A DNA stretch of 57,116 bases, the filler included, from Jimgerdemannia flammicorona (Eukaryota), in NCBI GenBank assembly GCA_003990765.1. It is 3 parts of 3 records of this genome, joined end to end, with 100 filler letters (N's around TTAATTAATTAA, not from the genome) between each part and the next. Parts side by side here need not be neighbours in the genome. Positions count along the whole stretch, not along the records: positions 19,075 to 38,048 come from RBNJ01002060.1; 2 more parts are not named here. One strand, written 5' to 3'. This document shows, piece after piece, positions 5,858 through 38,148 of the stretch. The notes below the pieces were generated by a model. That model was given only the letters and a program-made list of their open reading frames with translations. It made no database searches and was not told the origin of the DNA. How positions within the stretch are numbered: the first letter of the stretch is position 1; the number at the start of each line of letters is the position of its first letter. Both the position numbers and the translations under genes were made by a program.

Positions 5858-6145
5858 TTTTTTTTTTCCTCTATAGGCTGGAGCCCCATTTATTAACTAT
5901 CTAAAATCCTCATGCCATACCAGCAGCCACATTCTGCATCTCACCCCACCCTACTCTCACACTACAATTTCCAAACCAATAACAATCTAAGCACCTTTAG
6001 GATGTGAGTTGCAACCTCACTGCCTGAGTAACTAGATCCTCCTACCCAGCCTGCCCCACCCAAGAGTGGGTATGGGTTATGAGCCCCAACCACCTCAAGT
6101 ACTTGGCATCTAGTATACCTGGCCTACCCCTATTAGTGCCTCCCC
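5812..6145 (-). mobile_element. 5'-truncated LINE 3' end with poly(A) tail, interrupting element A
   Basis: About 55-nt poly-T on the plus strand. AATAAA about 20 nt before the tail on the minus strand. Decayed LLVWKL(W)CE motif resembles the L1-type ORF2 C-terminus. Confidence 0.6.
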
Positions 6146-7320
6146 ATCTTGCCCATCTTGCCCGTCTTGCCCGGTTGCCCGGTTGCCCATGTCATTTTTC
6201 CCATTTTGCCTGTCTTGCCCATGTCACCTGTCTTGCCATCTTGCCCATCTTGCCCATCTTGCCCATGTTACCCGCATCTTGCCCATGTCGTTTTGCCCGT
6301 TTTGCCCGTCTTGCCCATGTCGCCTGACTTGCTATCTTGCCCATCTTGCCTGTCATACCCGTGTTATCTGCCTTACCCGTCTTGCCCGTCTTGCCCATCT
6401 TACCTGTCGTTTTGCCCGTTTTGCCCATCTTGCCCATGTCGCCCATCTTGTCTTGCCCGTGTTGCCCATCTTGCCTGTTTTGCCAGTCTTACCCGTGTTG
6501 TTTTGCCCATTTTGCCTGTCTTACCCATGTCGCCCATCTTGCCGTCTTGCCCGTGTTGCCCATCTTGCCCGTTTTGCCCATTATGCCCATCTTGCCCATT
6601 ATGCCCATCTTGCTCATTTTGCCCGTCTTGCCCATCTTGCCTGTTTTGCCCGTCTTGCCCATTTTGCCCATTTTGCCCATCTTGCCCGTGTCGTTTTGCC
6701 CATTTTACCCATCTTGCCCATGTCACCCGTCTTGCCATCTTGCGCGTCTTGCCCGTCTTGCCCATGTTACCTGTCTTGCCCGTCTTGCCCGTCTTGCCCG
6801 TCTTGCCCGTCTTGCCCATCTTGCCTGTCGTTTTGCCTGTTTTGCCCATCTTGCCCATGTCGCCCATCTTGTCTTGCCCATGTTGCCCATCTTGTCTGCT
6901 TTGCCGGTCTTGCCCTGTCATTTTGCCTGTTTTGCCCGTCTTGCCCATGTCGCCTGTCTTGCCGTCTTGCCCATGTTGCCCATCTTGCCTGTTTTGCCAG
7001 TCTTGCCCATGTCATTTTGCCCGTTTTGCCCATGTTGCCCATGTCACCCATCTTGCCCATGTTGCCTGTCTTGCCGTCTTGCCTGTGTTGCCCATCTTGC
7101 CCATTTTGCCCGTTTTGCCCATCTTGCCTGTCTTGCCCATCTTGCCCGTCTTGCCCATCTTGCCCATCTTGCCTGTGTCATTTTGCCGGTTTTGCCCATC
7201 TTGCCCATATCGCCCATCTTGCTGTCTTGCCCATCTTGCCCGTCTTGCCTGTGTTGTCCGTGTTACCCATGTTGCCCATCTTGCCCATCTTGCCTGTGTC
7301 ATTTTGCCCGTCTTGCCCCG
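6142..7320. repeat. Tandem array of a 9-bp unit (C/T/G)TTGCCC(A/G)T with higher-order variants, about 1.18 kb
   Basis: Directly visible repeats cttgcccat, cttgcccgt, tttgcccgt, gttgcccat, interspersed with gtcgcccat and gtcgtt variants. Confidence 0.97.
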
Positions 7321-7529
7321 AAATTCTTGAAATCCTTGTAACTTGCTGAAACTAGAAGCTATGGCTATGCCGAAAAGACCAGGCGGGACTCCTATACCTA
7401 AGGGATGAGGTACACCTGTCAGCACTCCTTGGAGCCTATATTTGTGGCCTCCAAAACTTGAGAAGCTCACCATCCTGGTGGCTTAGATGCGGAGCCAACT
7501 GTTTGGTCCGAGTGAAAGGTCCTGCTGAT

Positions 7530-9555
7530 AGCAATCATTGATGTGCTCCATACAGTACATCTTGATCCTGTGAGGACAGACTCCTTGTAGTGCATAACCT
7601 TTTGCAATCTTCCTGCACCATTCTTCTTTGCTCATCCATCCTACTTTCTTTTTCGGAATAGTTACCATATAAGCTTCCTCTTGCTCACTCTCTTCTTCCT
7701 CCATGTCAGACAAGACTCCTTTGTTGACATTGATGGGAATTTGTATCTTCTGTCCCCAATAGGTGATTTGCATCTTCTGAGCATTAAGGTCGATTACTGC
7801 TCTAGCTTTGTGAAGCCATTGATTGCTGATGAGGATGTCATAGTTTGTGGCATTGGTTACAATTATGTCTACAGGGATAGTTACTCCTCCAATCTTGATG
7901 GGGACATCTTGGATCTTTCTTAGAGGAGTGGCTCTTGTGCTATCTACTGTAACAAACACCAACTTGGTTACTTCTTCAACCTCCCAACCTAGGTGGTCTG
8001 CTGCCTTCTTGCTGAGAAGACATCCTCCTGCTCTAGTATTGATGATGGCTTCAAAGATTCTATTCTCGATCTGGTATGTCACATAGCAGAGGTTTTGCGA
8101 TTGTCTTCACTTTCTTCTCCTGAGTCTTCTTGAACATTATTGGCCTCAGTTATCTTCCATTCTTACTCCTTGGTTGTTTTAGTGAGTTCAAACCTCATTT
8201 GCTATCTGAATGTTGGGATTTCTGCAAGCTGATCAAAAGTTGCATTGACCTTTTGTTGGCTAAGGTCCTTGAAGATATCATACTTGAAAGTCTTGATCTT
8301 GCAAAGTTTCTTTTCCTTTTCCCCTTCACTGGCTGGAGTGGTTCCTCAGATAATATCTTGAACTGCTTGCTTCAGCTCCATATCTTGGTCTATGTCCTCT
8401 ACTTGGCTTTCTGTAGTAGTTTCATCTGCTTTTCCACTGGGTTCTTCTTGGGTCTTCCCGGCAGTCTCTTGTAGAGCTCTTTGTGAACATCCTTCTTAGA
8501 AGTCTGAGCAGGATAGGCCTCTCATTCTTCTTTATCAGAATCTCCAATTTCTTCAAAGGTAATTGTGTTGGCCTGCTCCTTGTTTCTAGTAGCATTACTT
8601 AGCTGGGCCTTGTGCTTGGTTTCACTCATGCATTCGTAGGAGTAGTGGCCTTCTTCTCCACAGGTGTAGCAGGTATCTTTCTTCTTGTCTGAGGTGGCAG
8701 CAAACTTCTGGACAGAGTGGCAGTCTCTTCCTCTGATTTCTTTTACCACATCTCTCAGGTGGACAGTCATTTCTGCAAACCTCTTGATGAGTTTCTCCAA
8801 AGGGTTACTGTTCTTTTACTGCTCTGTAGCTTTGGGCTGAGGTGTATTTCAATTGATCATTGTGGTAGGGATCATGCTGGTTGCCTTAGGTGCTTCAATT
8901 CTGACTTCTGTAATTCTCTCCATTGTATTGTCTTGTGGGTATCTAGCTATCCAGTATCGCTGAGCATAAGTGACCTTTTGTGGCAGATCTAGAATCACTG
9001 GTGATGAGTGGATGGCATAGCTATCTCTGGGTGGACTCCTTTCATAAAGGTTGCTTCAGCTACTTGGTCTTGGATAACATCAGCATAATCTGCAAGGATT
9101 ATCTGATATCAGATTCTTGTGTATAATATGTTTAGATCTTTGCTCATTCCTTGGTATATTGTATTGAGCTGGTCCTTTAGAGCTTGCTTGATCTCATCTA
9201 TGTAGTAGGTAGTTCAAAGCCAGGTCTTCTGTGCTATCAGTATAGCATCGGCATCATTTTCCACATAGTTTACAGCTGTGAATACTGCTCTTGCAGGGCC
9301 TTGTAGGCTAAAGAGCATAAGGGCTACTTGCTATATTGCTGTCAGGGTCCTTACAGCGGCATACTGCTCGAAATCATCAATGAAGGTGATGATAGATTCA
9401 TCTGAGGTATATCCGTGGAATACTGGTGGTCTCATATCCATCTTATCTGGGTATTGGGGCTTAGTTTATATGGTTGTTTGGGTAGTGGCAGTTGTTCATT
9501 GTTCAGCTTGAAAGTGAGGAATTCATCTTAAATCACCAGCCAATGGGCACCAAGT
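7530..9555 (-). mobile_element. gag: Ty3/Gypsy element E, truncated (gag with CCHC knuckle plus aspartic protease)
   Basis: CYTCGEEGHYSYEC (8522..8800). Protease AII(D/N)TRAGG...DILISNQWL (7483..8082). Colinear with gag-PR of element D. Possible PBS TGGTGCCCATTGG next to the LTR at about 9540-9552. Confidence 0.9.
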
Positions 9556-18974: not shown

Positions 18975-19074
18975 NNNNNNNNNNNNNNNNNNNNNNNNNN
19001 NNNNNNNNNNNNNNNNNNTTAATTAATTAANNNNNNNNNNNNNNNNNNNNNNNNNNNNNNNNNNNNNNNNNNNN
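18975..19074. other. Scaffold gap with TTAATTAATTAA linker
   Basis: N runs flank TTAATTAATTAA. The same structure occurs at 38049-38148. Confidence 0.98.
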
Positions 19075-19110
<36 letters not shown>

Positions 19111-20889
19111 TAGAGGATAAAGTGATAGGAATCTATAGTACCCAAGTTGACACTAGAAGTCCTTTTTGAGCAGGTCCTCATGGCTCTTCTGATGTCTTAG
19201 AATATTCTTTCCTTGACTAAGATATCTTATTGGTTCCTTGACCTTGAGGTTTGGTGAGCAGCAGGCATTTTGTTTGTAGTAAGTCTTTGAGCTATTTTGG
19301 AATTAGTGGTTCTTATTGGTTACTGCTACTGTAGTTCCTTGATCCTTCTTTTATATTTTTCAGGATGCTTGTACTGTAGTCACAATGACTCACAGTTGGT
19401 CATCATTGCTCATCTCATATACCATATGATCTCCTTGTGCTTCAATCTAGTGGCTTATGAGGAAAGGCTATCTCCTGTACTGATGTTATCATTCTGAGGT
19501 CACTATTATATCTTCCTCCTGAATAAGGATCTTCTTGAGTATTCTTATTTATTGGTCCAGTCTTGAAAAATTTACTGATTCCATAACCTCTAGCAAGGAG
19601 TCGAAAAGTGGTATTTATGGGCTGGCATCTTCTCTTTATATTTTGGCATGATGGTGAAGGATTGCTCTCTTCATATAGAGCAAGGGCCTGATTCTGATCT
19701 TGACCAATCAGTTGATGGTTCGAACTCCTCTGACTTTGAAAGTCTCATGGATGAGTAGTTGCCAGTGCTGTATCTCTTAGAGAATGGTCCAGACAGATAG
19801 CCTGCTGGTCACAGGATATGCTATTATGATTCATGGACTAGAACCTTGCAGGTGGTCATCATGTTTTACTTCTCTTATATAGGTTTATGGTACTTCTTGA
19901 GTCTGTTCCTATGTACTATAGTAGGCAGTATGGTTCTTGAGATTTTTCTAAGCCAGAAGGTAGTTCTCTTGATATCTTGCATGTAGAAGGGTCCTTCTCA
20001 TTTGGGCTCCAGTTTTCATGACCATGAGACTTCTACTATATTTCGATACAGTAGAACCTTTTCTCTGATTCAGATGGGTTCTAAGGCCTTGTAATTCTTT
20101 TCTGCATTCTTCCTTATTAGCACTTGTGACTTGATGATGTAATCTTCAGCCTTCTTCCTGATTTGGTGTAGTCTCCAGATTTCTGCATCAACCTATCTCC
20201 AAGTTAGATCTAGATTTGTGGCTGAGGTTCCATCAGAATCTTCTTCTCTGAAGAGCAGCTCCCTTGGGATAAAGTGTGTACTCTGTGATCATATGTCTCA
20301 TAGGACAGAGAGAGCAGTTGGGAGATAGTTATCCCAATTCTCATATGTCTCTGAGATCTTCGCTAGGATGTTCTTGAGGGTCTTATTGGTTCTTTCTATC
20401 TGTCCATTTCCTTGAGGGTGGTACACAGTGGTCTTGATGTACTAGATCTTGTATTTCTAATATATTATCTTGTAGAATCTATTAACAAATTCTGTGCTGT
20501 AGTCTGTTGTGATTTGCTTTGGTGTCTTGTAGCGGCAGATGATTTCTTGATGCAGAAAGTCAGCTATAGAGAGGGCATTGGCTTCTTGTAATACTCCTAC
20601 CTCTATCTATTTGATGAAGAGGTCTACAATAATTTTCTGATAGTATTACTGGTAGTGGTCCAATGATATCTATTACAATATGGTGGAAGGGGATAGGCTC
20701 AATTTTTGATGACCTAGGTACCTGGTCTTGCTGATCTTATTTCTGTTTTTAGCACTTGTCATACCCTTTGACAAATTAGTGCAGGTCTTCTTCCATCTTG
20801 GACCACCATATGGTTCTTCTTGCTTTGTCATATATATTAGTTCCTCCTAAGTGTCCTTGCTCATACATATACTTCCTTCATTACTTAAT

Positions 20890-20890
<1 letters not shown>

Positions 20891-20964
<74 letters not shown>

Positions 20965-20968
20965 GGAG
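20891..20968 (-). mobile_element. Minimal retroposed insertion (CTCCC plus poly-A) with target-site duplication
   Basis: TTACTTAATG (20881-20890) and TTACTTGATG (20969-20978) flank a T tract plus GGGAG inside the integrase region. Confidence 0.85.
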
Positions 20969-22659
20969 TTACTTGATGTTTCTTATATTTAGGTATTACT
21001 AGCTTTCCTCCTTTTCTGAGTGTAGTGTTGTCTAATTCAAACTGTTTCCAAGTCTGGTTGATGATGGTGATTGTCCAGGGTTTGAGGTGGTAGAGCATCT
21101 TCTGCTGCTTAAGATAGCTGATTAATCCATAGTATAGCTCCTTATTCATATTGAATAGTCTTGATGGGAGTGTTTTGGGGTATCCTTGAGAGTACATCAG
21201 CATTGGTGTTGGTCTTTCTTGAGCAGTGCTTGAGAGTACAGTCATACTCTTGTAGCCTGTAGATCCATCTGGTATATATTCCTTTGGGGTTCAGAGTGTG
21301 GAATAGCCAGGTAAGAGCAGAGTGGTCTGTTTGAATGGTGAAGTGTTTCCCAGCTAGGTAGTAGTGGAACTTGTCTACTGCCCAGACTACTGCTAAGCAT
21401 TCAAGCTTGCATGACTCATAGTTCTGTTCTGCTCCATGGGTATCTCAGCTTATATAGGAGATGATATATTCATGTCCATCTTTCTTCTGAGCTAGGACTG
21501 CTCCAAGTTCTATAGCACTCGCATCTGTCTGCAGGATGAATTCTAGATTCCAGTCTGATCTTCTGAGGATAGGTGCTTGGGTCAATCTGATCTTGAGTTC
21601 ATTGAAGGTTTCTTGATACTTCTTGGTCTATTCAAATTTGGTTTCCTTCTTCAGTAGCTCATAGATGGATACTGCAATATTAGAGTATCCTTTGATAAAC
21701 CTTCTGTAGTAGCTGGCCAGTCCAAGGAAGGCATGGACTTCTGTAGTTGTTCTGGGTCTTAGGTAGGCTGCAACAGTCTCAATCTTCATAAGATCTGTGT
21801 GGATTCTGATCTGATTGATGAGGTGTCCTAGGTAGGCAATTTCCTGGGCTGCAAACTTACATTTCTTAGGCTTGATGTAGAGGCCATGCTCTTTGAGCTT
21901 CTTGAGGGCTAGCTGTATGTGATTGACATGTTCCTGTGTAGTATTGCTGAAGATAATCACATCATCAACATAGACAAAGAGCTATTTTCCAATCTCATTG
22001 TTAAAGACTCTGTTCATCATTTGCTGAAAACTTGCTGGGGTATTGTATATTCCAAATGGCATTCGCAGATAGATATAGGTGGTATCAGGTGTAATGAAGG
22101 CTGATTTCTCACTGGCATCTTAAGTGAGACCAATCTGATGAAAGCCTGAGAACAGATCCAAGGTGGTATAGTATTTGGCTTCACTTCCAAGGGTGGTAAG
22201 GATTTCTTGAATATTTGGCAAGAGCTGCCTATCCTTCTTGGTGATGGCATTGAGCTTTCTGTAGTCAATACAGAGTCTTGATGCAAACTCTCCAGGTTTG
22301 CTTTCTTTCTTCAGAGCAAGAACAATGAGTGAGGTCCAGGGGCTGATAGCTTACTTGATGATTCTGGCTTCTTCTATTTCCTTGAGTTCTGCTTGCAGCC
22401 ATTCTCTATAGGTAGGTAGTATGGGTCTGGCTTTCTGGTAGATGGGCTTGGTATCACCAGTGTCAACTTCATAATAGTACTTGGGTTCTTGATTGTGAAT
22501 ATCTCTAAAGTCTGTAGCAAGTACTCCTTCATTCTGATACAGGATCTTGAAAAGTTATTCCTCCAGGGGAAAGTTTTCTCCAATGGTATATGTATGCTTG
22601 TTCTGGTCCTTGTCTTTCTTGTGCTCAAGTTTAGTAATCTTGATAGTAGTATAGGCTCC

Positions 22660-23076
22660 TCTTCCAGTAGATCCAAAGCCTTGTTCTCCTCTCTTGGTCT
22701 TAATGAGTTTGATGGCTTCTATGATCTTGGGCTTCTTGATTTTGTGGATCAGCATCTGGCCAATCCTGTCATACTTCTTGACTTCGAAGGGGGTGGTGTG
22801 GTTGTGATTTCTGACTATGAGGAAGATCTTATCAGTATAATCAGGGTCAATTACTCCTCCTTCAACTGAGATTTCGCTTCTGGCCAGACTGCTCCTGGTC
22901 TTGATAATTCCAGCATGGTTTTCTGGCAGCTTGACTCCAATTCCAGTGCCAAGTAGGGTAGTGGTCTGTGGTTCAAGGATAACATCTTGAATGCTGGCAA
23001 GGTCCATTTCTATAGCTCCTTCAGTCTTATATTCTGGGATCTTGGCTTCAGGATAAAACTTCTTGACCTTAAGGGT
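22660..23076 (-). CDS. dut: dUTPase domain between protease and RT of element D (part of a degenerate polyprotein)
   Basis: In ORF 22555..23367: GAIEMDL, RSSLA, GGVIDPDY, DRIGQM, RGEQGFGSTG, i.e. the five trimeric dUTPase motifs. Confidence 0.95.
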
Positions 23077-25281
23077 GATGTCTGATTCTTGTTCCTCCTC
23101 ATCATCACTGTCAACCTGAAGCTCTGGGGGCTGGTCATCTTCTTTGGCTTTTTTTTTTGCTTTGGCAGCTTCTTGCTTGTATTTCTGTTGGCAGATTTTT
23201 CTGACTTCACTGATATAGGACCAGCAGTCATTCAGGTGTTCTGAGCAGTATATCCTAGTACCATAGGGGCATCTTCCTTGAGGGGCATATCCATTGATGA
23301 TCTTATTGTACCACTGCTCATCTATGAGCTTGGGTGTCTTGTTCTTGTTCTTATTCACTGAGTACATGAAGACCTCTGTGTCCTCTTCATCTCCTTCCTC
23401 TATGTCTGGTAGGACTCCCTTGTGAATATTAATAGAGACTCATACCTTTCTTCCTCTATAGTTGATTTGCATCTTCTGAGCATTGAGGTCAATGATGGCC
23501 TTGGCCTTGTGAAGCCATTGGTTACCAATGAGGATGTCATAGTTGGTGGTACTTGTGATAATCACATCTACTGGGATAGTAGCTCCTCCTATCTTAATGG
23601 AGACTTCTCAGATTTTGCCAAGGAGGGTAGCTTATATACCATCTGCTATAATATAGACCATCTTGGTGGACTCTTCAATGTCCCAGCCTAGGCGGTCAAT
23701 TGCCTTCTTGCTCATGAGGTATCCTCCAGTATCAGTATCAATAATGGCATCAAAGATATAGTCTTCAATCTGATATAGAGTATAGGCTGATGTCTTGTGC
23801 TGGTCTTCAGATTCTTCACCTGAGTTCTCAGATTCTTTCTGTGTATTGTGAGCTTCTACAATCTTATACTCTTGATTCTTGGTAGTAGTTACAAGTCCTA
23901 CTCTCAACTGCTGTCTAAAGGTAGGGACTTCAGCTAGTTGTCCAAAAGTGGCATTGATCTTCTATTCCTTAAGGTCCTTGTAGATATCATACTAGTGGAT
24001 CTTGGTCTTGTGTAGCTTCTGTTCCTTCTTGCTTTCACTTTCTCCTGAGACTGGAGTAGTACTTTCAATAATTTGGCAGGTAGCTTCATCTAACTATATA
24101 TCTTGATCAATCTCCTCAGATTGGGTCTTGCTTTGAATAGTGATAGCTGGGGTCTTCTTTGGTCTTCCAACTGGCTTGCTGTTGCTCATCATAGGGCTTG
24201 GACCAGATTCTGATACCTTCAGCAACAGGGTAGAATTCAAGCTCCTCATAGTATTCTTCATCATCAGTATCACCAATCTCCTCAATGACTACTGTATTGG
24301 TTTGTTCTCTGGTTCTACTAGTATTGCTTGGTTGGGCTTTGCATCTTGTTTTGGTCATACAATTCTTTATATGTGGCCTTCTTCTCCACATCTGAAGCAT
24401 ATGATATTGTATTCTTCTATAGCAGCTGCAAATCTCTGTACTGGTCTCCTGTTGGTACTTTAGACTTCTCTAACAATATCACTAAGATGTGCAGTCATCT
24501 CAGTGAACTGCTTGGCAAGTTCTTCCACTGGGTCAGCTTTGGCTGTCTTGGGGGTAGGTAGGGTTGGTTGTCTGTTTACAACTGTGGCAGATATGATACT
24601 AGTTAGCTTTGATGACTCTATCTTGATACCAGTTATTTTCTCCATTGAGTGTTCAGCAGGGTATCTGGCAGTCTAATATCTCTGTACAAAGACCACTTTC
24701 TGATCAAGAGTCAGTGTAGCTGGGGTAGACTGGATTGCTAGGGCAATTCCAGAGTGAACTCTTTTGAGGAAGGTTGAATCTGCTATTTGTTCCTTAAGGC
24801 AGTCATTATAGCCAGCCAAGACAATCTGGTGACAGATTCAGATATAGAATGAGTTGGGATCTTCACTAAGTCCCTGGCAGATAGTATTGAGTTGATCCTT
24901 GAGAGCTTGCTTGATCTCTTCAGTATAATATATTGTTCTGAGGAAGGCCTTCATATTGACAAGTTTGGCTGTACCAGTATCAGCAATGGTGGCTACATTG
25001 AACTTATCTCTGGCAGGTCCTCTGAGGCTGACTGGTAGAAGGGCCAATTGAGCATCTATACTAAGGGCTCGTATGGTGGCGAATTGTTCAAAGTCTTCAA
25101 TGAAGGTCAGAATTGACTCTTCAGTAGTATATCTATAGAATGTAGGGAAATACATTTCCATCTTATCTTGAATTCTTGCAGGGGTGACTCTTGTAGTCAG
25201 GGTAGTTGTTATAGGGATTGTTCGTTTTTCAGATTAAAAGTGAGGTATTCATCTTGAATCACCAGCCAATAGGTACTAAGT

Positions 25282-26792
25282 TGTCATGTGGTGGTCACTG
25301 AGTCCTTCAAATATACCAGATTCTCTTCAAGGTATATCTTTTAGACTAACTCAAGTTTGTTATAAGCAAGTTCTTATTGGAGTGCCTTCCTAAGGTCTTA
25401 TAGTCCTCAAACTTCTTATCTTTAACTATCTTGTTATCTCTTAGATTGCTTGCAAGGAAGTGTGTATAAGTGAAACTAGAACTGACTTTATTTCAGAAGA
25501 AATAAGAGGGGTATTTATACAAAATATAATTCAATAGTTGCTAAGATATAAAGCTAAATATAAATTCCAATAACTAAAACTACTAAGTTCCAGAGTCAGC
25601 ACTGATGGTTGTACAGGTTCAGAATACTGGTATAATTCAGTATCATATCAGAATACCAGTGCTGAAATAATTTTGCATCACCTCAGAATGTCAGTACTAG
25701 TATTATCCAGTGTTACATCAAAATACTGGTACTGGCATTATTCAGTATAACAAAGAACTTAGAGCAGAAAGTTCAGGACCATGGGGGCTTTATCATCATC
25801 ATTATCACTAAAGAAGATGAGATCCGCAAATTCGTCATTTTCACATACTTCGATGTCATATAAGATGATATCATCACCAATGATGTCATCATGTTTGGTA
25901 GGGAAATTGGAGGCTCTCCAATCTAAGAGGTTCTCTTCTACAAAATAAGAAACAAATGTGGGGTCTTGGGGAGGTCTAACCTAGATGCTTGGGCCTTGGA
26001 ATACTGAGATCAATCCTTGCAGGAATTGGTCTGAGTTGTCCTGAAGGATGGGATGCCAGAAGTCTTCTACTTCATCACTATTGAGAGTAATAGTGGACTG
26101 GGCTTCTGTAGCCACCCTGGCTTCTAGTGCATTGATATGGTGGGATGATAGATCTCTGAAGTCTGAGACTCTAATATACTCTAAGTTAAAGATTGACCAT
26201 GGTGTATGCCTGAAGATCTGATAGATCTTCTTAACCATTCTTGTCTCATATATATCCATGGGAGTGGCATCTTGTAGCTCTTGAGGACTGGCCTGTAGGA
26301 ACTCCTGGCAGAGGAGGTTTTTTATTTCATACTTCTGCTATATTTGGAGACATTCAGTAGCAATGGTGATCCTTGTTTCCATTTCACAGTAGTAGAGAAT
26401 AAAGTGATAGGGATCTGCAGTACTCAGGTTGATACTAGGAGTTCTTCTTGAGTAAGTCCTCATGGCTCTTCTGATGTCTTGGAATATCCTTTCCTCAACT
26501 GAGATACCTTGGTAGTTTATTGACCTTGAGGTTTGGTGAGTGGCAGACATTTTATTTGTGGTAAGTCTTTGAGCTATTTTGGGATTGGTGGTTCTTGTTA
26601 ATTGCTACTACTGTAGTTCTTTGATTCTTCTTTTATATTCTTCAAGATACTTGTACTATAGTCACAATGACTCACAGTTGGTCATCATTGCTCATCTTAT
26701 ATGCCATATGATCTCCTTGTGCTCCGATCTGGTAGCTTGTGAGGAAAGGCTGTCTTCTGTACTAATGTCATCATTCTGAGGTCACTGTTATA
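25282..26792 (-). mobile_element. 5' LTR of element D (LTR-B) with decayed U3 ORF
   Basis: Reverse-complement match to 53413-54962. ORF pieces 26338..26550 and 25981..26259 match 53655-54496. Confidence 0.92.
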
Positions 26793-26819
26793 ATATATAT
26801 ATATATATATATATATAAA

Positions 26820-27506
26820 GAGCTTACTAATTTAATCTTATATTCAATAAATAGAATTTAGTAGACAGAGTTTTATTTATAATTAATATATAGATATCTT
26901 CTATTTCTGAATATTACTAATTATTGAATTAATCTCAATTAGTAACTTAAATCTCTTATTCTTGACTTCATCAAACTTGCTAGTCCTCATTCTGAGAAAA
27001 CATTATGGATGCTTTTATTAGTTATATCTAGTGCTTCCAATGAATCAAATCAAATTGAATTTGGCCCAAACTTGATTCAATTTGATTGAATCAAGGGTCC
27101 AATTCAATTCAATTTGAATTGAATCAAAGGTCCAATTTGATTTGAAGTTTGATTCGAACCTTAATTTTCAAAATATAATAACTCAACAAAAACTCATCTA
27201 AATTTAACATATTTTAGCTTGATAGATTTACTGTATTAATATGATTCTAACAAGCTAAAGTATGTTAGATTTGGATGAGTTTACGCTGAGTTATTGCATT
27301 TTGAAAATTAGGGTTCAAATTAGACTCTCAATTCAATTCAACTTTTAATTCGATTCAAATTGATTCAAATTGAAAAATCCCCAATTTGATTCGACTCATT
27401 TAACCCTCAATTCAATTCAATTCAAATTGATTTGACTCATTTGGAAGCACTAGTTATATCTGAGAGCTTGGAATCATAACTAAAATAAAAAAAAGAGACT
27501 TGTCAT
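26820..27506 (+). mobile_element. Left part of an older hAT copy (host of nested insertions)
   Basis: 26960-27028 and 27461-27506 match the transposase sequence at 28745-28865. Continues at 33908. Confidence 0.85.
27029..27452. mobile_element. hAT-type MITE, 424 bp
   Basis: TIR TAGTGCTTCCAA / TTGGAAGCACTA. 8-bp TSD GTTATATC (27021-27028, 27453-27460). Internal GATTC/GAATC repeats. Confidence 0.95.
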
Positions 27507-27914
27507 TAGTGCTCCAAATGAGTCAATTTGAATCAAATCCAGATTCGATTCATTACATGACAGTTTGATCTGAATCTCAAATCTGAAGCCATCCAAATCA
27601 ACTTGGATTAATCCAAATTGCTCTATCCAAATTGCCCCATCCAAATCACCCATCTGAACCACCCCAATCCAAATCACTCAATCCAAATCACTCAATCTGA
27701 ATCACTCAATCTGAATCCTCTAATTTGAATCCTCTAATTCGAATTCTCCAATTTGAATTCTTTAATCTGAATTCTCATCTGAATCCTTCAACTGAATCCT
27801 CCAATCCAAATTCTCCACATGACTCATATGTCAGATGTATCTATAACACAATATATATATACATATACACACATGTACATATAAACACATGTACATATAA
27901 ACACATAAACATAC

Positions 27915-30518
27915 ATGTCAATAGATCAGTCTTCAACAGTTCACAGTACTGATAATGCTTCAAGTCAAATATCCCTGATAGCTCCACATCTTCCATACAA
28001 TCCTTGCTCTAAAATCTGTCAACATTGTGCTAAGATAGGAGATAATATTGTTTGTAATTATTATAGGTAAAAAATTAAGATGCACCTATTGACACTTTTT
28101 GTTTGTTTTAACATACACATGATATTATTTCATCCACCCCCATGAACTGCACCAGCCAGAAGTTCAAAATGCTTGAGAGTATAACTTTAAATATGAATCA
28201 ATACATAAAAGACAAGTAGTCTGACAAAATCAAAAAGAACATGAAGACAAATAAAATCAATATCCAAGCTGTGATGGGTATATTTATCTGATTGCCCAAC
28301 CATTTCTGTACTAACAATACCATTTAATCAAAAATATTTAGCCATACTTTTTGGCAGAATTTTGAAATTGGCTCATTTACTGGATTGTATACACAGACCA
28401 GCTATTCACAACCATCGAGAGTGATCAATTGTATAGCATCTTTGGTCTCCTCAAGCATGATTTATATTTGCCAAGTGCCAATACTATTTGCAAAGATATC
28501 CTAGAGACCTATAGGAAGGAGCATGACAATCTCTGCCAGACACTTCAGGTAAAATAAGGGCAGCACCATGACCTTTGCAAGCTGAATTATATAAAAGAGC
28601 TCACCAATTTAATCTCACATTCCATAAGCAGAATTCAGCAGACAAAATTTCATTTATGATTGACACATAGATATCCCCCAATGCAATTTCATTTCTAGGC
28701 ATTACCGGTCATTAGATTGACCTTGATTAGCAGCTTAAATCTCTCACTCTTGACTTCATCAAACTTGCTGGCCCTCATTCTGGAGACAATATCGCAGATG
28801 CTTTTATTAGTTATATCTGGGAGCTTGGGATCACTACTAAAGTAAAAAAGGGGGGCTTGCCATCAGGTCAGCATTTTGAGAGAGGTTCTAAACTAAACCA
28901 GATTTTATTGATTATTTATTTTCATATAAATTCACCAACTAAATATTTCAAGTACAGATTTTGACCATTATGATAGACAATGCTACAAATAACTCAACAT
29001 TTTTCAAAGTTTTAGTGGCCAGCCTCAAACAGAAAAATGTGGCCTTTGGTGCAGAAAGCTGTCATATGTAATGCCAGACCCACATACTAAACCTTGCTAT
29101 TCAGGACTATCTTACATACATAGACAAAACATCCAAGAGAGGAGGGGCTCTGAGTATAATTTCTGAGCTATGCAATCTGGTTGTGTCAGTCTGATCATCT
29201 CCACAACAATGAGACAAATTCGCTATGTAGTATAGGGCAATCAGTTTAGCTCTGAAAGAGCTTATATTGGACATCTGTATGCATTGGAACTCAACATTTG
29301 CAATGATTCAGCATGTACTGGAGTTTGCTGTGGTATGCATTCTTTTTTTCTTCAGTCAGCTGAAGCAACTTGTTTCAGATAATTGAAGATTTATTTAAAA
29401 AAAAAAAAAACAAAAAAAGTCAATAGATTCAACAGTGGCTGCTAACAAGGAAATATGGGCTGAGGCTCTAGGTGAAAGTGAGTGGGACATACTTAGGAAT
29501 GTTGTCAGAGTTTTGGAAGTAAGTGGTGATTGCTTCAGCTCCACACTCATTTTGTCAGCCTCCACACTCGTTTTGTCTACCTACACACAATGCAACACCT
29601 CACTACATACATATAACTGCCAGTGTTTTGATAATTGTATAAAGGATATAGTCAAACAAACAGCCCTGACAATAAGCTCAGCAATACTAGTATACAACCT
29701 TCTGATTGACTGGCTAGAGGACAAGCTCAAGGATAGGCTAGAGGGTTGCAGTGATTTATGGTTGAGCCTGGATCAGAGAGATACTTTGGAGGTTGCTCTT
29801 AGTAAGCTCAGAAAGTACTACTCCCAAACAGATACTACTGTATACTCAATTAGTATAGGTATGTCAATGTCAATGTTGGTGTATGGCTGTTGCCCCTTCC
29901 AAAACAGAGAAACCCCCACAAAAACTCACTCTCTCCTCTCTTTTGAACAGTACTAGACCCACACTTAAAGCTACAATACCATAAAGATCAGGGCTGGGAG
30001 CAGTACTTCATTGAGAGAACCAAGCAAACTATAATCAAAGTATACTGAAAAAACTACATGCCACCACAAGGTTCTGGCCAAAGTCTGGATGAATATGCCA
30101 AGAGATTCCTCCTGTCCCACATTTACTTCAGCAGAAAGAGGAAGAGGGAGCTGTCAGTGGAAGAGCTGCTATCAATAGACAAACTTACTATTTACCTCAC
30201 CAGTGACCATGTGATCCTGCTGGAGGGCATGGAGGTGCTCAACTAGTGGAAAGTGGGTTGTCAGATAGGCATTGGACCAATTTAACCCACCAATCTAACC
30301 ACTGCTCTACCTATCAGGGCATGCAGCTATGTTAAATGAACTTTCCCAGCCTGTGTGGCATGGCTTGGGACTATCTAGCAATTCCTGCCTCCAGTGCTCC
30401 TGTCAAGTAGGTGTTCTCAGATGGGGTGGACCTTATTGCCCCAAAGAGATATATGCTGAATGCTGAGACAATCTGGGCATGTATGTGTCTGAAGTCTTGA
30501 TGGAGCTTGGGCTGCTAA
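27915..30518 (+). pseudogene. Intron-containing hAT transposase (BED finger, DDE core, hATC dimerization domain), inactivated
   Basis: SKI(C)QH...CNY BED-like start. FLGITGH and HSGDNIA (about 28690-28790). DNATNN (about 28975). HWNSTFAM (about 29282). FPSLCGMAWDYLAIPASSAPV (30340-30405). Several premature stops. Confidence 0.9.
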
Positions 30519-30649
30519 AATTCGGTGGGTCCTGGAGATTTGTAGATAAGTTGGTTGGCCTTGTGGAATATTTAATACCTTTCAAAATAATAAAAAGGTA
30601 AAAAACCCTAAGGACTCAGCCTGAAGTTTGCGGTCCAAGTAGGCAGTGG

Positions 30650-31295
30650 TCAGTGGGGTTGGCAGTGACAGTGGAGGGAGTGCACAATGTTTGTAGCCCT
30701 CCATCAGTAGCAAAAAGCAGCCCCAAGCTGCCAGTGCCCAGGTTGGTGAGTGGGTTGGCAGAGGGAGTATGCAAAATTTGTGGTCCTCTGCTGGCAGCAA
30801 GGGGCAGCCCCAAGCCACAAGTGTCCCAGTCAGAGGGGTTGGCAGAGGGAGTGTGCAAAACTTGTAGCCCTCTGCCAGCAGCAAGAGGTAGCCCCAAGCT
30901 GTCAGCACCTGGGTCAGTGGGCAGGGTTGGTCAGCAGGGTTGGTGGGTGTGAGATCAGTAGAGGGAGCACACAAAATTTGTAGCTCTCTGCCAGCAGCAA
31001 GGGACAGCCCTGAGCCACAAGTATCCAGGATGGATGGAGCAGGTAGAGGGAGCATACAAAATTTGCAGCCCTCTACCAGTAGTGAGGAGCAGCCCCAAGC
31101 TGTCAGCACCCAGGTCAGTGGGTAGGGTTGGTGGGTACAGGGTTGGTGAGGGAGTACATAAAATTTGTGGCCCTCCACCGGCAGCAAGGAGCAGCCCCAA
31201 GCCATAAGTGTCTGGGACAGGTGGGGCAGGCAGAGGGAGTATATAAAATTTGTGGCCCTCTGCTAGTAGCATAGGGGCAGCTCTAAGCTGCCAAG
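30650..31295. repeat. Seven copies of a roughly 55-bp GC-rich core with variable spacers, between the two converging hAT genes
   Basis: Core GAGGGAGYRYRCAAAATTTGTRGCCCTCTGCCAGCAGCAAGGRGCAGCCCCAAGC at about 30674, 30761, 30845, 30961, 31046, 31148 and 31233. Confidence 0.9.
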
Positions 31296-31635
31296 GAGTC
31301 TGGGGTAGAGGGTGCTTCTGGTGATCAGAGGGTGCTTCTGGCAGTTGGAGGACATTTCTAGTAGTCGAAGTCCACTGCAGATTCAGGCCCTGTCACCAGT
31401 TCAGGTCCTATGAGCACCCTGGCCCTACACTGTAGTGCCACACTAATGGCACTGCAGAGCAGGGCCAAGAGACTGGTAGGGCTCTACATAATGGCTAAGC
31501 TAGTGCTACAGAAGATGTGCCCAGCCCAACCCCCCACATAAGACTGCCCAACTCATACAAAATAACTGCCTAACTCTCATGAAAGACTGCTTATCTCTTA
31601 TGAAAATTGCCTAATCCTTACAAAAACTGCTCCAC

Positions 31636-33320
31636 CTACTGGTCCCAGGCCTTGATGAGCCTATCATCTATTGTGAGTGCAACGACTATTGTTTCTGAGC
31701 TCTCCTCAAAGGCAATAGTGCCATAGTAGTTATGTGGTTGGAAGAGGATAGCTATATTGACCACAAACAGGACTTCAAAACCATAGGTGAGATCATACCA
31801 GACTCCACCGCTATCCTCCCAGGTTGGGCCCTTCCTTTCCAGAATGTAAAACATTATTAGGGTGATATTGTTGTCTATGTGTATGGGCAGAGAAAGGTTG
31901 CACCCAACATATTTTGATGTGATGTGAGCATATAGTTGGGTGAACCCTTGGTCCAGGACCTCATACTGCCAGGCTGTACTGGTGGATACCTGCCCCTGGT
32001 CCAGCCCCAAGAGCCCCGGCTTGGAAACCTGCCAAAATGGATAGCAACTAGTCAGTCCTTTTTATATATAGGGGGGCAGAAGCCTCCTGGGCCGCAGAAA
32101 TCCCCCAGGCTGCAGCACCCCAAAAATGTGAAGCTCCTCACCTCATACGGCATACCAAGAATATATATATAGCCATGCTGAGATCACCACCAAGCTGGCC
32201 TGCCATATACTCTACCAATCTACTCAAAGAACCCCAGATTATAGCCACCATTGCCACACAGGCTGTGTCATACTCATGTGCAGTTTGCTCTTCAATAGCA
32301 CTTCTAAAGTTCTGATAGGGGTACAGAATCTTATATATCTCTGGATTTGTATAAAAAAGAGTATATCAGTGAAGAGTGTGATTTATCTGGAGAGGAGTAA
32401 AAAAAAAGGGAGATGAGTGTGAGAGATTTCAGAACTCTGGAACCCACTCTTTGTCAGTATTGCAGTATACTCAATTCCCATCCAAACTCCCCCTCCTTGC
32501 TTTTTTCACCCCCTCTTTTCTGTCATCTAGTATTTGATACAATCCTCGCAAATCTCATTAATGTGGTGGCAAAGCTTATCACCATAGAGGTTTCTTACCA
32601 CCATCATAACTACCTCTCCATGTTCATTAATAAAGATATGGTTCTCTTTGTCATTAGTTACTTCTGCTGACCAATAGACCCCTTGGTTGAGAACAATTGG
32701 CTCTGATTCAAATGTAGACCCCCAAGCCTTGATGATAATACTAGTACTGCTTATGCTGAACATCTTGCCCTTGAACTTCTCTATTTTATCAGACACCAGA
32801 CATGGTTAAACTCGGGTAACTTTGAACTCTCCTTTTTAATGAAACTGAGCCCTGATCTGAGAGACTGAGATAAGTATATGGACAGGTTGTATGCAGATAG
32901 ATTGCATGCAGACAGATTGTATATAGGTGGATTGCATATGGGTGTGGGTGTTTTTTAGGGGGAGACCATATAAAAAATAAAATTAAATAAAACATGGAGA
33001 TGGGTATTTCAGAAAAAGAGCATGAGTGAGTGAGTAAGTGAGCTGTATGCCAACAAGTTACATGCCAATGAGTTGCACAAGATTGCTCATGAAGGCTTGC
33101 TTCTGTTCCTTTTGAGACCTCCACCATGCAATACATTGACTCAACAGCTCAGCCACCAAAGGCATGCCCTGCAACGTCCTCCAACCTTTCTTCATCTTGA
33201 CCAGATGTTGTGAATAAAGTTGACAGATCTCACCATAGAGCTGTGGACCCTAAGAAGAGCATGAGGTGAATCAGATTGTGCTGGAGGAATTTAAACAAGT
33301 AGTAACAGAAAAGAGCAATC
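31636..33320 (-). pseudogene. Putative 2OG-Fe(II) dioxygenase (TET/JBP-like) cargo gene, multi-exon
   Basis: Last exon (31636..32010): LSLPIHIDNN (HxD), SGGVWYDLTYGFEV, AILFQPHNYYGT. Upstream exon IFINEHGEVVMMVVRNL (32527..32796). GT-AG intron at about 32029-32141. The 5' boundary is uncertain. Confidence 0.6.
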
Positions 33321-33907
33321 TACATCTACTACTGGCTACTCCAAAAAGGCTACCACATATATAGCTGTGAGGTCTGTGAATTCTGAGGTCCAAAGGGCTG
33401 CTATGAGTTGTTACCAGAGTTCACCCTTATCCCTGCCATCACTATCACCATTGCTATCACCATTGCCACCACTGTCATCTCTTTGGCTCTTGATGAGCAG
33501 CTTGTGTACTGTCTATATGAGAAAAAATCTAACATTATCAGTAGAGAGTGCATTTCCACCTTGAATACTCCCTCTTTTGATGATTATTGCAGAGTGAAAA
33601 ATAAGTAGACTGGACCAACATATGAATTAAGAGCTACTGTTTTGTTTGCTCATGATGTGGTAAGAAAGAACAAAGAACAAAGAAAAGAGAGGGAATAAAG
33701 GAAAGAGTGATATCACTAAAGTATGGTAGGAAAAAAAAAACAAGAGCAAAATGAACAAAAGAAAGGGTGATGTCACCAAAGATTTCAATCCAGATGGATC
33801 AATCCAGATAGATCAGATCACAAGACCATCCAAGTTGATTCAAATCCATTATATGACAAACCTGAATCAAATCTCATCTGAATCAACTTCATTTGTTCAG
33901 AGCACTA

Positions 33908-35594
33908 CTTGTCATTAGGTTAGTATATATTTTGAGAGAAGTCTTAAAACAAAATAAATTTTAATAGTTATTTATTTTATATAAATTTACTAACTAAAAA
34001 TTTCAAGTACAGATTTTGACTATTATAATAGATAATACTACAAATAATATAGTATTTTTCAGAATTTTAGTGGTTAATATTTAATAGGAAAATATAGTCT
34101 TTAGTATAGAAAACTACTATATATATTGTCAGATCTATATACTGAATCTTGCTATTCAAGATTATCTTATATATATAGATAAAACATCTGAAAGTAAAGA
34201 AATCCTGAGTATTGTTTTCAAGTTATACAAACTGATTATATTGATCTAATCATCTCTACAATAATAAGACAAATTTACTATATAGTATAAGATAATCAGA
34301 TTAGTCCTAAAGAGCTAATATTAAATGTCTATATATATTGAAACTTGATATTTACAATGATCCAGCATATACTGGAGTTTGCTATAGTATATATTCTTTT
34401 TTTAATTAATTGAAGTAAATTGTTTCAGATGACTAAGAATTATTAATAAATTTCAAAACAGAAATTTTTTTTTTTTAAAAAAAAAAAAAAAAGCTAATAG
34501 ATTTCATAGTTACTGTTGATAAGAAAATATAGAGTGATGAAAGTAAGTAAGATATACTAAAAAATGTTATCAGAGTTTTAAAAATAAGTAATAATTACTA
34601 TTTATTTTGTCCGCCTCTATATAGTAATATAACAATTTACTATTTTTAACTATCAGTGTTTTGATAATTATATGAAGAATATAGTTAAACAAATTACTTC
34701 AACAATAAGTTCTATAATACTGGTATATAATCTTTTAATTAATTAATTAGAAGATAAGCTCAAAAACAGACTAAAGAGTAGTAATGATTTCTGGTTCAGC
34801 TCAGATCAGAGAGATACTGTGGAGATTGCTCTAAGCAAGCTTAGAAAATACTACTTCAAAATAGATACTACTATATATTCAATCAGTACAGATATATCAG
34901 TATAGTAGTTATCTCTTTCAAAAAAGAGAAACCTCTGCAAAACTCACTCTCTTTTTCAAAACAGTATTGAATCTATACTTAAAGCTATAATACCATAAAG
35001 ATCAGGACTAGAAGTAGTACTATATTGAGAAAGTCAAGTAATTTATAATTGAAATATACTGGAAAAACTATATACCACTATAAGGTTCTGGCTAAAGTCT
35101 AGACAAATATACTAAATAATCTCTTCTATCATATATTTACTTCAGCAGAAAGAGGAAGAGAGAGCCATCAGTGAAAGAACTGTTGTCAATAGATAAACTC
35201 ACCATTTATCTTACTAGTAACTATGTGATTCTGCTAGAGAGTATAGAGGTACTCAACTAGTAGAAGATGAGTTATCTTCTTATAAGTACATAGTTAGTAG
35301 AGTTAGGTCAATTTTAACTACCATTCTAACTACCATTTTACCTCCTGGGGTATGTAGCCACAGATGTATCAAACAGACTTCCTCAGCCTGTATAGTATAG
35401 CTTAGAACTATCTGGCCATTTCTGCTACTAGTACTCTAGTCAAATAAGTATTCTCTAATAAAGTGGATCTTATTTCTCCTAAAAGATATATACTGAATAC
35501 TGAGGTAATCCAGACTTATATACATATATCTAAAGTCTTGATAGAGCATAGACTGCAAGTTCTGCAGTATTAAATAAAAGTTATAAATAAATTA

Positions 35595-35642
<48 letters not shown>

Positions 35643-36450
35643 AGTTCAGCTTAGGGCATAAGATAGTAGACAGAGGAAGTGTACCAGAGTTTGTAGTCTC
35701 TCACCAGCTACAAGAAGCTACTCTTGAGTAGCTCAAGTAGGATAGAGATCAACAGGGTAGAGATCAGTAAGATTAGTAGAGAGAGTATGCAAAATTTGTA
35801 GTGCTCTGCTAGCAATAAGGGACAATTCCAAGCTATTAGTTAGTGCAGAAGTCCAGGTTAGAGAGAGTATACAGAATTTGCAGCCCAATGACTTACTGCA
35901 AGAAGTAGCTTTAAGTAGTCAGATTTTGATACAGATTTAGGCTCTATGAGCATCCTGGCCCTATACTGTAGTACTATACTAGTAGTATTACAAAGTAAGG
36001 TTAAGAGACCAGTAAAGCCCAGTAAAAAGCTAAACTAGTACTATAAAAAGAGACACCTGACTGCCTAACCTTTACAAAAGATTATCTAATCTTTATAAAA
36101 CTGCTCCATCCACTAGTCATAGACCTTGATGAGCCTATCATTTATTATAAGTATGATGACTCTAGTATCTGAGCTCTCCTCAAAGGCAATGATACCATAG
36201 AGGTCATGTAGTTAGAATAGAATAGCTGTATTTGCTATAAACAGAACTCTGAAACCATAGGTAAGATCATACTAGATACTACTACTGTTCTCCTAAGTTG
36301 GGCCCTTTCTTTCTGGAATATAAAATATTATTAGAGTGATATTGTTATCTGTATATATGGGTAGAGAAATATTGTACCCAATATACCCTAATATAATATG
36401 AGTATATGGTTGGATGAATCCTTGACCCAGGATCTTATATTATCAGACAA
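33908..36450 (+). mobile_element. Right part of the older hAT copy (transposase 3' half, three repeat cores, end of the cargo gene)
   Basis: Colinear with about 28860-31975 but far more C>T/G>A mutated. 36110-36450 matches the dioxygenase-like exon. Confidence 0.92.
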
Positions 36451-36845
36451 TAGTACTCTAAATGGATGAAATTGATCCAGATGAGATTTGATTCAAATTC
36501 ATCATATGATGGATTCAAATTAACTCAGATTGGTCTCATGATCTGATCTAGATTGATCCATCTAGATTGATCTATCTCACAAAATCTTTGGTGACATTAT
36601 CCTTTCTTTTATTCATTTTTTACTCTGTTTTTTTTTTTTTCCTTCTATACTTTGGTGACATCACTCTTTCTTTTATTCCCTCTCTTCTTTTATTCTTTCT
36701 TTTGTTCTTTTTCTTTCCTGCTGCATCATGAGCAAACAAAACAGCAGTCCTTAATCATATGTTGGTCCAGTTTACTCATTTTTTTATCCTGCAATAATCA
36801 TCAAAAGAGGGAGTATTTGAGGTAGAAATGTACTCTCTGCTGACA
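36451..36845 (-). mobile_element. Third hAT copy, right terminus only, inverted
   Basis: TAGTACTCTAAATGGATGAAATTGATCCAGATGAGATTTG... is the reverse complement of 33535-33907. Confidence 0.88.
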
Positions 36846-37750
36846 TCCTTTCTCCACTATCTTACCAGTCATAATGGTTTGGTAGACAACCTTCCGAGTC
36901 TACTTTCCACAATTATTACCCCCTCTATCTTGGATTGGTTTGCTGTACCTATTGCAGGGTAGTGGGAGGGAGACAATGGTGATGAGTTGCTCCTTTATTG
37001 GTGTCAGATCAGTGTTTTCTCTACTTTTTCACAGTTTCTGGTGCCTTCGGCTATGTCTGGGGTACATCTGTTTTGGTACAGTGCCTTCTTTCTTTTGCCA
37101 TCACCAACAAGGTGTTGTCTTGGTACATATATCTCAGGCTATGTAGGGAGTTAGCTGATCTTGGGCATCAAGTACTCAGTATAGGTTACCTGCAGGTCCT
37201 TAGTGCCTGTGGTGGGGCCCTCTGGCTTTGGCGAGCTTTCTGACAAGCACAGTTCTGGCATAGGTGACTACTTTTTGGGTGTTGTCAGAATGGGAGAGGA
37301 GAAGGCAATTACAGATAGGAGGAAGGGCGATAACAGTGGACCAGTAGGGTGCCAGGCTGGGGGCAGTTGTCGGGGCTGGGGTGGGTGCTACTTCAGTAGG
37401 GCCTTTTGATTGGTATGGTATAGTTAGGTGGTAGGTGTCACTCTCGGCTTCTTTTGGTAATTCAGTGGGTTGGGCCCTGGTCATCTGAGGGGGTCAGGGG
37501 GCCTGAGGCTATCCATTTTAGGTATCTTGGTTATACTCAACTGGAACTGGGAGCTGATATGGAAATGTGATCGAGGCCTGCAGGCTTAAGTAGTGGGGTA
37601 TTGGGGGTCTCCTCCCACCTCACGTGTAAGTTCTTTACTTACCTCGACTGGGAGAACTAGGCCCTACCCACCGTATTGTACTTTGATGAGGGTTTTTCTT
37701 TACCTGTCATTCTCTTTGGAGTGGTAGGGGCTATTCTATTTGGCTCAGGC
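36846..37750 (-). mobile_element. Probable 5' end and ORF1 start of a LINE
   Basis: Minus-strand MDSLRPPDP at about 37516 (PPDP is common at LINE ORF1 N-termini), followed by Pro/Thr-rich coding-like sequence. Confidence 0.4.
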
Positions 37751-38013
37751 ATGACCTTGTACATATGTTGGGTTCTCGGGCATGCGCTTTTGGTTGTTGG
37801 CATATGGTTGGGTTTCCCCTAGTAGTAGAGAGAGCATGGTATACAGAATGAGGTATGGGTCATTATAGGCCCTGCTATGCCTAGCATGATTGAGCTGCTG
37901 GACAATAGCTAGCCTAGGTTAATGGGGGGGCAGTGCTTAATGGGTGGTGGGAGAGGTTTTTGGCCTATATAGTCTAGATTCCCTTTCAATAAAAATCCAT
38001 GGGACATTGAGTC

Positions 38014-38048
<35 letters not shown>
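37751..38048 (+). mobile_element. LINE-like 3' end with poly(A)
   Basis: G-rich sequence, AATAAA at about 37988, and a poly-A run into the gap. Confidence 0.5.
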
Positions 38049-38148
38049 NNNNNNNNNNNNNNNNNNNNNNNNNNNNNNNNNNNNNNNNNNNNTTAATTAA
38101 TTAANNNNNNNNNNNNNNNNNNNNNNNNNNNNNNNNNNNNNNNNNNNN
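38049..38148. other. Scaffold gap with TTAATTAATTAA linker
   Basis: N runs flank the linker. Confidence 0.98.

Follow-up and report, generated by a model that had tools for sequence, protein, structure and literature searches.

A decayed hAT transposon of Jimgerdemannia flammicorona with a convergent gene for a putative TET/JBP-like dioxygenase

Transposon-borne DNA-demethylating enzymes represent a counter-defence against genome silencing, and a 2025 survey reported that many fungal transposon lineages have captured TET/JBP genes (Kojima 2025, Biology 14:1741, PMC12730594). An element at 27507-33907 of a 57,116-nucleotide stretch of Jimgerdemannia flammicorona DNA (GCA_003990765.1; this whole stretch is hereafter the window) bears on whether a canonical hAT transposon has also taken up such an enzyme. 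The element lies within the middle part of the window, 19075-38048 (RBNJ01002060.1). Here, we describe it as a dead copy of a hAT family making 8-bp duplications, which carries, beside its transposase gene, a convergent gene for a likely TET/JBP-like (PE-like) dioxygenase of about 370 aa with a proposed anti-silencing role in intact relatives. The window element would be another capture, of a very divergent enzyme resembling the PE type of that survey.

Boundaries of the element and its transposase

The stretch 27507-33907 is a canonical hAT-superfamily DNA transposon with an 8-bp duplication, here called the young copy, and parts of an older copy of the same family lie on both sides of it.

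27507-33907: hAT element, young copy, 5′ end TAGTGCTC, 3′ end GAGCACTA
27499-27506: left target-site duplication CTTGTCAT, identical to 33908-33915
33908-33915: right target-site duplication CTTGTCAT, 8 bp, exact
27507-27546, plus strand: left terminal inverted repeat, its first 8 nt TAGTGCTC perfectly matching the right end
33868-33907, minus strand: right terminal inverted repeat, ending in GAGCACTA
27610-27806: subterminal 14-bp repeats of the AATCCAAATCACTC / AATCACTCAATCTG type (Tandem Repeats Finder)
28366-30500, plus strand: hAT transposase pseudogene of several exons, with in-frame stops within conserved blocks
30640-31293: about seven tandem repeats of 84-116 bp, between the two convergent genes
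26810-27028 plus 27453-27506: older copy, left part
33908-36439, plus strand: older copy, right part, 5′-truncated

The first-pass annotation of this DNA had described matching terminal inverted repeats (TIRs) and an 8-bp target-site duplication, and both were recovered. The exact CTTGTCAT stands on both sides, the terminal bases of the two ends agree at 8/8 positions, and the outer 40 nt align at 28/39 with a score matched by none of 200 shuffles. Moreover, the older copy follows the order of 28588-31965 in the young copy at 70-77% identity, its left truncation falling at the equivalent of 28588. Of its two halves, 27451-27506 corresponds in alignment to 28808-28863 of the young copy, and 33908-35556 corresponds to 28856-30515. 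The overlap of the two halves is exactly the duplicated 8 bp, so that the young copy's own sequence supplies the empty site, in which the equivalent of the duplication, CTTGCCAT, occurs as a single copy at 28856-28863.

The plus-strand hAT transposase of the same annotation was likewise borne out: in a read-through frame, 30336-30497 matched the hAT dimerisation domain (PF05699, E 1e-7), scoring 32.1 bits where the cut-off is 21.4. Thus three of four features of the hAT superfamily were found, namely the 8-bp duplication, short TIRs and the dimerisation domain. No Pfam match to an Asp-Asp-Glu (DDE) / RNase-H-like catalytic core was obtained in the read-through frames, its blocks being recognised by eye alone. 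At least two stops fall within conserved blocks of the young transposase, in ...SCHM*CQTHILNLAIQD... and ...SSAPVK*VFSDG..., which we take to be typical hAT blocks; stops at such places indicate that the transposase gene is broken. The tandem repeats at 30640-31293 also yield a spurious 226-aa open reading frame (ORF).

The passenger gene, its relatives and its decay

The second gene of the element faces the transposase, and the residues discussed below lie in its last exon.

About 33165-31610, minus strand: passenger gene, convergent with the transposase and here a pseudogene, for a putative TET/JBP-like (PE-like) Fe(II) dioxygenase
31873-31881, minus strand: HxD motif of the young copy, CAC ATA GAC, His-Ile-Asp
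31723-31725, minus strand: distal metal-binding His position, TAT (Tyr) in the young and older copies
36098-36439, minus strand: older copy, last exon of the dioxygenase, with four stops and Tyr at both His positions

Sequence comparison indicates that the passenger gene is a member of a real, conserved protein family of about 370 aa. The last-exon ORF (31636-32061, minus strand, 141 aa) contains ...SLPIHIDNN..., ...SGGVWYDLTYGFEV... and ...AILFQPHNYYGT..., and a phmmer search with it against 1.84e9 (1.84 billion) representative proteins gave six matches at E<=0.001, five of which were retained.

P0001: E 2e-57, 72% identity
P0002: E 2.7e-21, 43% identity
P0003: E 3.4e-8, 31% identity
P0004: E 2.9e-6, 27% identity, 374 aa, full-length
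P0006: E 9.8e-5, 32% identity

The sixth, P0005 (E 8.2e-6, 47%, 1768 aa), is a repeat match with ten short repeated stretches and was set aside. An ORF of 141 aa alone could arise by chance, yet the E value of 2e-57 rules chance out. When the full-length P0004 was aligned to the window by tblastn, its residues 93-166 matched 32667-32449 with two stops inside, residues 160-209 matched 32365-32213 and residues 238-335 matched 32013-31732, all on the minus strand; in addition, a block at 33165-33090 (in the ORF 33058-33249) scored 46 against the P0004 N-terminus, a value that none of 1000 shuffles equalled. Since the four blocks follow the order of this one relative, the gene spans from an ATG at 33165 to about 31610, in agreement with the convergent multi-exon gene that had been annotated.

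When longer proteins were screened with the exon through a word index, 464 candidates emerged, none of them at E<=0.01. A search with P0004 as the query returned nothing beyond P0004 itself and P0007, and a profile search with the alignment A4 found eight proteins at E<=1 from 574 candidates, none of them with a Pfam domain. All relatives stem from metagenome or Logan assemblies, with annotation never beyond 'hypothetical protein'. One soil-metagenome sequencing run contains 0.06 of the words, and there was no RNA run among those listed.

An intact four-exon homologue with a normal CpG observed/expected ratio of 1.2 was found on two metagenome contigs that are 99% identical (L001 and L002), two loci among 138 pattern matches obtained with a closer alignment, the first alignment having been too divergent. 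The homologue is 31-36% identical and lies 1.7 kb from a contig end that resembles the left terminus of the window's hAT family (29/38 identical, a score attained by none of 200 shuffles). On the 3.7-kb contig L001, no transposase and no Pfam family were found in six frames. This arrangement is a lead, not a demonstration, for a conserved hAT association of the homologue. Further intron-split ORFs lie 3′ of the homologue on the same strand (L001 2320-3256, and likewise L002); those of L001 had no Pfam match and no counterpart in the window, and together they may represent a third gene of that element.

The first-pass annotation had reconstructed an HxD...H metal triad from a Tyr at the distal position, and the relatives support this reconstruction: all eight that cover the site carry His in HG(T/S) where both window copies carry Tyr. 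The His of HxD was also present in 8/8 and the Asp in 6/8, being replaced by Asn in two ORFs with evident decay. The two motifs are separated by about 50 residues in a strand-rich C-terminal part. The complete triad was found in relatives and in neither window copy, the older copy reading TAT (Tyr) at both the HxD His and the distal His (...LHDLYGI... within 36098-36439). A TAT codon lies one C>T step from CAT, and comparison with the relatives supports the view that the distal Tyr is a decayed His. Either the common Tyr predates the split of the two copies, in which case the source enzyme was already dead, or the same C>T change occurred twice, in a genome whose CpA cytosines differ at 60% between the copies.

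Decay is evident throughout the locus. The CpG observed/expected ratio is 0.07 in the young copy, with TpG and CpA in excess, and 0.15 in the window. Among 2192 aligned bases, the older and young copies differ at 516; 364 of these differences are C>T or G>A changes on the side of the older copy, and the C>T changes (26810-36439) affected 60% of CpA, 56% of CpC and 17% of CpT sites. This bias comes in addition to a near-total loss of CpG; it differs both from simple deamination at CpG and from the TCG pattern of C>T decay described in rust fungi in the available text of PMC12730594. Besides the two stops at 32449-32667, the young dioxygenase has another where relatives carry Trp near the C-terminus. 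The young copy is dead, with stops in both genes and the metal-binding His lost; it is itself a pseudogene copy, not an intact element.

With both genes dead and a metal ligand missing from each of the two copies, nothing acts in the young copy, and the label 'self-encoded anti-silencing system' given to it was an overstatement. Any enzymatic function would apply to intact relatives only. In these, iron would be bound by the His and Asp of HxD together with the distal His of HG(T/S), and the enzyme may oxidise or otherwise modify 5-methylcytosine (5mC) on the DNA of the element. Such a modification would work against silencing by methylation and against the ensuing C>T decay. Here, the iron ligands of the enzyme were themselves lost to C>T decay, which the enzyme would counter.

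Family assignment and rival explanations

On the best available evidence, the passenger appears to be a TET/JBP-like Fe(II) dioxygenase, nearest in sequence pattern to the PE type and a candidate for the double-stranded beta-helix fold. By eye, the family is colinear with the PE-type TET/JBP proteins of Table S1 in PMC12730594 over five blocks: QN.I.VD, TG....GY, LPR(M/L), H.(E/D) and GG.F...DYG......N..V..P...HGT(T/S). In the same visual comparison, a Morchella PE-type entry is identical at 13/33 ungapped positions from GG to HGTT and at 7/17 in the QN.I.VD block. Like the PE type, the family lies at a great distance from canonical TETs, the survey giving an HHpred E value of 1.4 to CMD1 for PE-type proteins (PMC12730594). 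Language-model look-alikes of P0003 included a cluster of the Tet-like PF20515 (0.90, 175/256 shared features) and a cluster with Tet_JBP (PF12851) on 31% of its members (0.90), while 21/30 look-alikes of the window exon fell in the set of PF13640 (2OG-FeII_Oxy_3, score 0.91). Scores of 0.90-0.91 are of a size attained by 4-10% of shuffled proteins, and the match to TET-like families is a lead.

Several results weigh against this assignment and against an enzyme acting in cis. At thresholds of E<=1 and E<=0.1, the passenger ORFs and read-through frames gave no Pfam match, and neither did five relatives (E<=1); Tet_JBP and PF20515 were unmatched both in the window and in these relatives, and a profile of eight sequences found no PDB chain at E<=10. 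AlphaFold2 gave unusable models from shallow alignments, with a mean pLDDT (predicted local distance difference test) of 37.6 for P0004 (8 rows) and 38.9 for P0007 (14 rows); Foldseek with the P0004 model returned nothing at E<=0.001, and its herpesvirus glycoprotein rows at E>0.1 are meaningless. The PE-type match is a visual comparison, not a computed one, and the PE hallmark HxE is replaced by HxD or HxN in 10/10 alignment rows, for which reasons the protein is called PE-like and not a member of the PE type. Canonical TETs bind 2-oxoglutarate (2OG) through an Arg after the distal His. At the expected column the relatives show N, H, T or V, as the caveat of the first-pass annotation about this residue had it; by eye, the amide residue there is shared with the PE type, and an Arg occurs 20-21 residues past the distal His in 4/5 lineages, off the canonical place. 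The distal Tyr is common to both window copies, and the source element may already have been without an active enzyme, which weakens the case for any need of the enzyme in cis. Finally, the gene is covered by two copies only, a third copy diverging 370 bp inward from its terminus. The earlier assignment to TET/JBP-like 2OG-Fe(II) dioxygenases is thus partly supported by HxD...H, the look-alikes and the PE-type likeness, and finds no match in Pfam or the PDB. As a side observation, Pfam scans of the window also returned, besides PF05699, weak sub-threshold zinc-finger and YgjK_N rows.

The same results bear on whether the passenger might belong to a different class of Fe(II)/2OG-type oxygenases, similar to prolyl hydroxylases or to AlkB repair enzymes, with no action on methylated DNA bases. 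The clusters found with the window exon are those of PF13640 and not Tet clusters, which, together with the unmatched Tet families and the absent canonical Arg, would fit such an enzyme. However, it is the undecayed P0003 that points to the Tet-like PF20515 and Tet_JBP clusters, and the by-eye colinearity with the PE type spans the whole protein, including N-terminal blocks outside the common core. Moreover, the transposon-borne dioxygenases in the available text of PMC12730594 are all TET/JBP, in a literature search that was not aimed at other classes. We therefore consider another oxygenase class unlikely, and a TET/JBP-like enzyme the better account of the passenger.

Two further explanations concern how the gene came to lie in the element. 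A gene of the host, whole or in part, caught by a single hAT lineage (transduplication), would have no role for the element and decay as a passenger, as the distal Tyr in both window copies might suggest; two copies only could be examined for the gene, given the divergence of the third. We regard this as improbable, in that the whole gene is present from the start codon to the C-terminus and not as a fragment, that the 31-36% identical homologue lies close to a terminus-like end on its metagenome contig, and that homologues were found without a name from any annotated genome, as expected for a transposon gene. The gene region could also be a separate transposon nested in the hAT copy, nesting being frequent at this locus, where three insertions of the hAT family lie in or beside the older copy. 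The older copy, however, keeps the same last exon (65% identical to P0001, E 1.3e-49) colinear with the 3′ end of the transposase and with a remnant of the tandem repeats at 35767-35886. Because this exon occupies the same relative place in both copies, the passenger belongs to the hAT family, as had been proposed. A search for TIRs and a duplication of the gene's own gave, flanking or crossing it, only inverted matches of 12-20 nt (76-93%), at chance level and none with a duplication; a nested transposon is accordingly highly improbable.

Known systems and surroundings of the element

The first-pass annotation knew of no hAT carrier of such a gene. This no longer stands, as both a TET-carrying hAT7 of Puccinia and the anti-silencing idea are published: in rust fungi, the survey describes seven transposon lineages with TET/JBP genes, among them twenty hAT7 families with 7-bp duplications from six Puccinia species, all with PU-type TET, and it proposes that transposon TETs strip off silencing marks or act against C>T hypermutation (PMC12730594). 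Among the papers listed in a full-text literature search, none besides Kojima 2025 dealt with TET on a fungal hAT. Both principle and hypothesis are thus already published, and the window element is a further example. It resembles TET-carrying hAT7 in its superfamily, in a probable TET/JBP-type dioxygenase beside the transposase and in the proposed role in silencing escape (PMC12730594). The features that distinguish it from hAT7 and from the PE type are a duplication of 8 bp, seen at two independent insertions, whereas hAT7 makes 7 bp; an enzyme that is PE-like by eye in place of the PU type; HxD instead of the HxE of the PE type; and a gene that lies downstream of and convergent with the transposase, whereas in the three hAT7 families for which an order was seen TET is upstream in the same orientation (PMC12730594). 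The PE-type carriers given in the available text are Helitron, IS3EU, Zisupton, EnSpm and Plavaka of Pezizomycetes and Agaricales, and the abstract does not name hAT as a PE carrier (PMC12730594). Since standard domain libraries miss the enzyme of the window family, such passengers are probably under-counted.

Transposase and TET/JBP gene also travel together in the TET/JBP genes that accompany Kyakuja/Dileera/Zisupton (KDZ) transposons of Basidiomycota, reportedly described by Iyer et al. in 2014, which differ in having another transposase superfamily and an AG-type enzyme. Pfam recognises the KDZ-associated TET/JBP proteins, whereas the window family is unrecognised by it. CcTET of Coprinopsis, which shares this joint travel, oxidises 5mC (PMC12730594). 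CMD1 of Chlamydomonas reinhardtii, the best reported HHpred match of the PE-type proteins, is a TET homologue that uses vitamin C and produces 5-glyceryl-methylcytosine; unlike the window gene, it is a host gene and not transposon-borne (PMC12730594). It is conceivable, if doubtful, that the window family represents a fourth, undescribed transposon-borne TET-like type, PE-like with HxD and without the canonical Arg, on 8-bp hATs of soil fungi, with L001/L002 as intact members. Such an enzyme may use another co-substrate, as CMD1 does, and write a different 5mC mark instead of erasing one.

Two more members of the hAT family lie in the older copy.

27029-27452: miniature inverted-repeat transposable element (MITE) of 424 bp, a non-autonomous foldback of the same hAT family, with the 8-bp duplication GTTATATC on both sides
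36451-36850, minus strand: terminus of a third copy, inverted, within the dioxygenase exon of the older copy

A distance of 54 bp separates the MITE from the young copy to its right. The MITE termini are TAGTGCTTCC, and the ends of this element are identical to each other at 33/36 positions and to the left end of the young copy at 28-30/34. Reverse-complemented, 33538-33907 matches the third-copy terminus at 79% identity. After about 400 bp, the third copy passes into a GC-richer stretch of 1.2 kb that terminates in poly(A) where the piece ends, and this piece end cuts the third copy. No Pfam match was found in 36844-38017 or in the older copy, and the GC-richer stretch may be a retroposed insertion.

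The window consists of three joined pieces, with N44-TTAATTAATTAA-N44 linkers at 18975-19074 and 38049-38148, and the surroundings of the element are rich in transposable elements.

22555-23439, minus strand: dUTPase domain PF00692 (E 3.7e-26) in a 294-aa retroelement ORF
7483-8106, minus strand: retroviral-type aspartyl protease (retropepsin) PF08284 (E 2.8e-8) in a retroelement ORF

At 6114-7349, a GC-rich, low-complexity region has several open frames (337-411 aa) with repeats rich in Leu, Pro, Ala and His, and is probably a satellite or microsatellite array rather than a gene.

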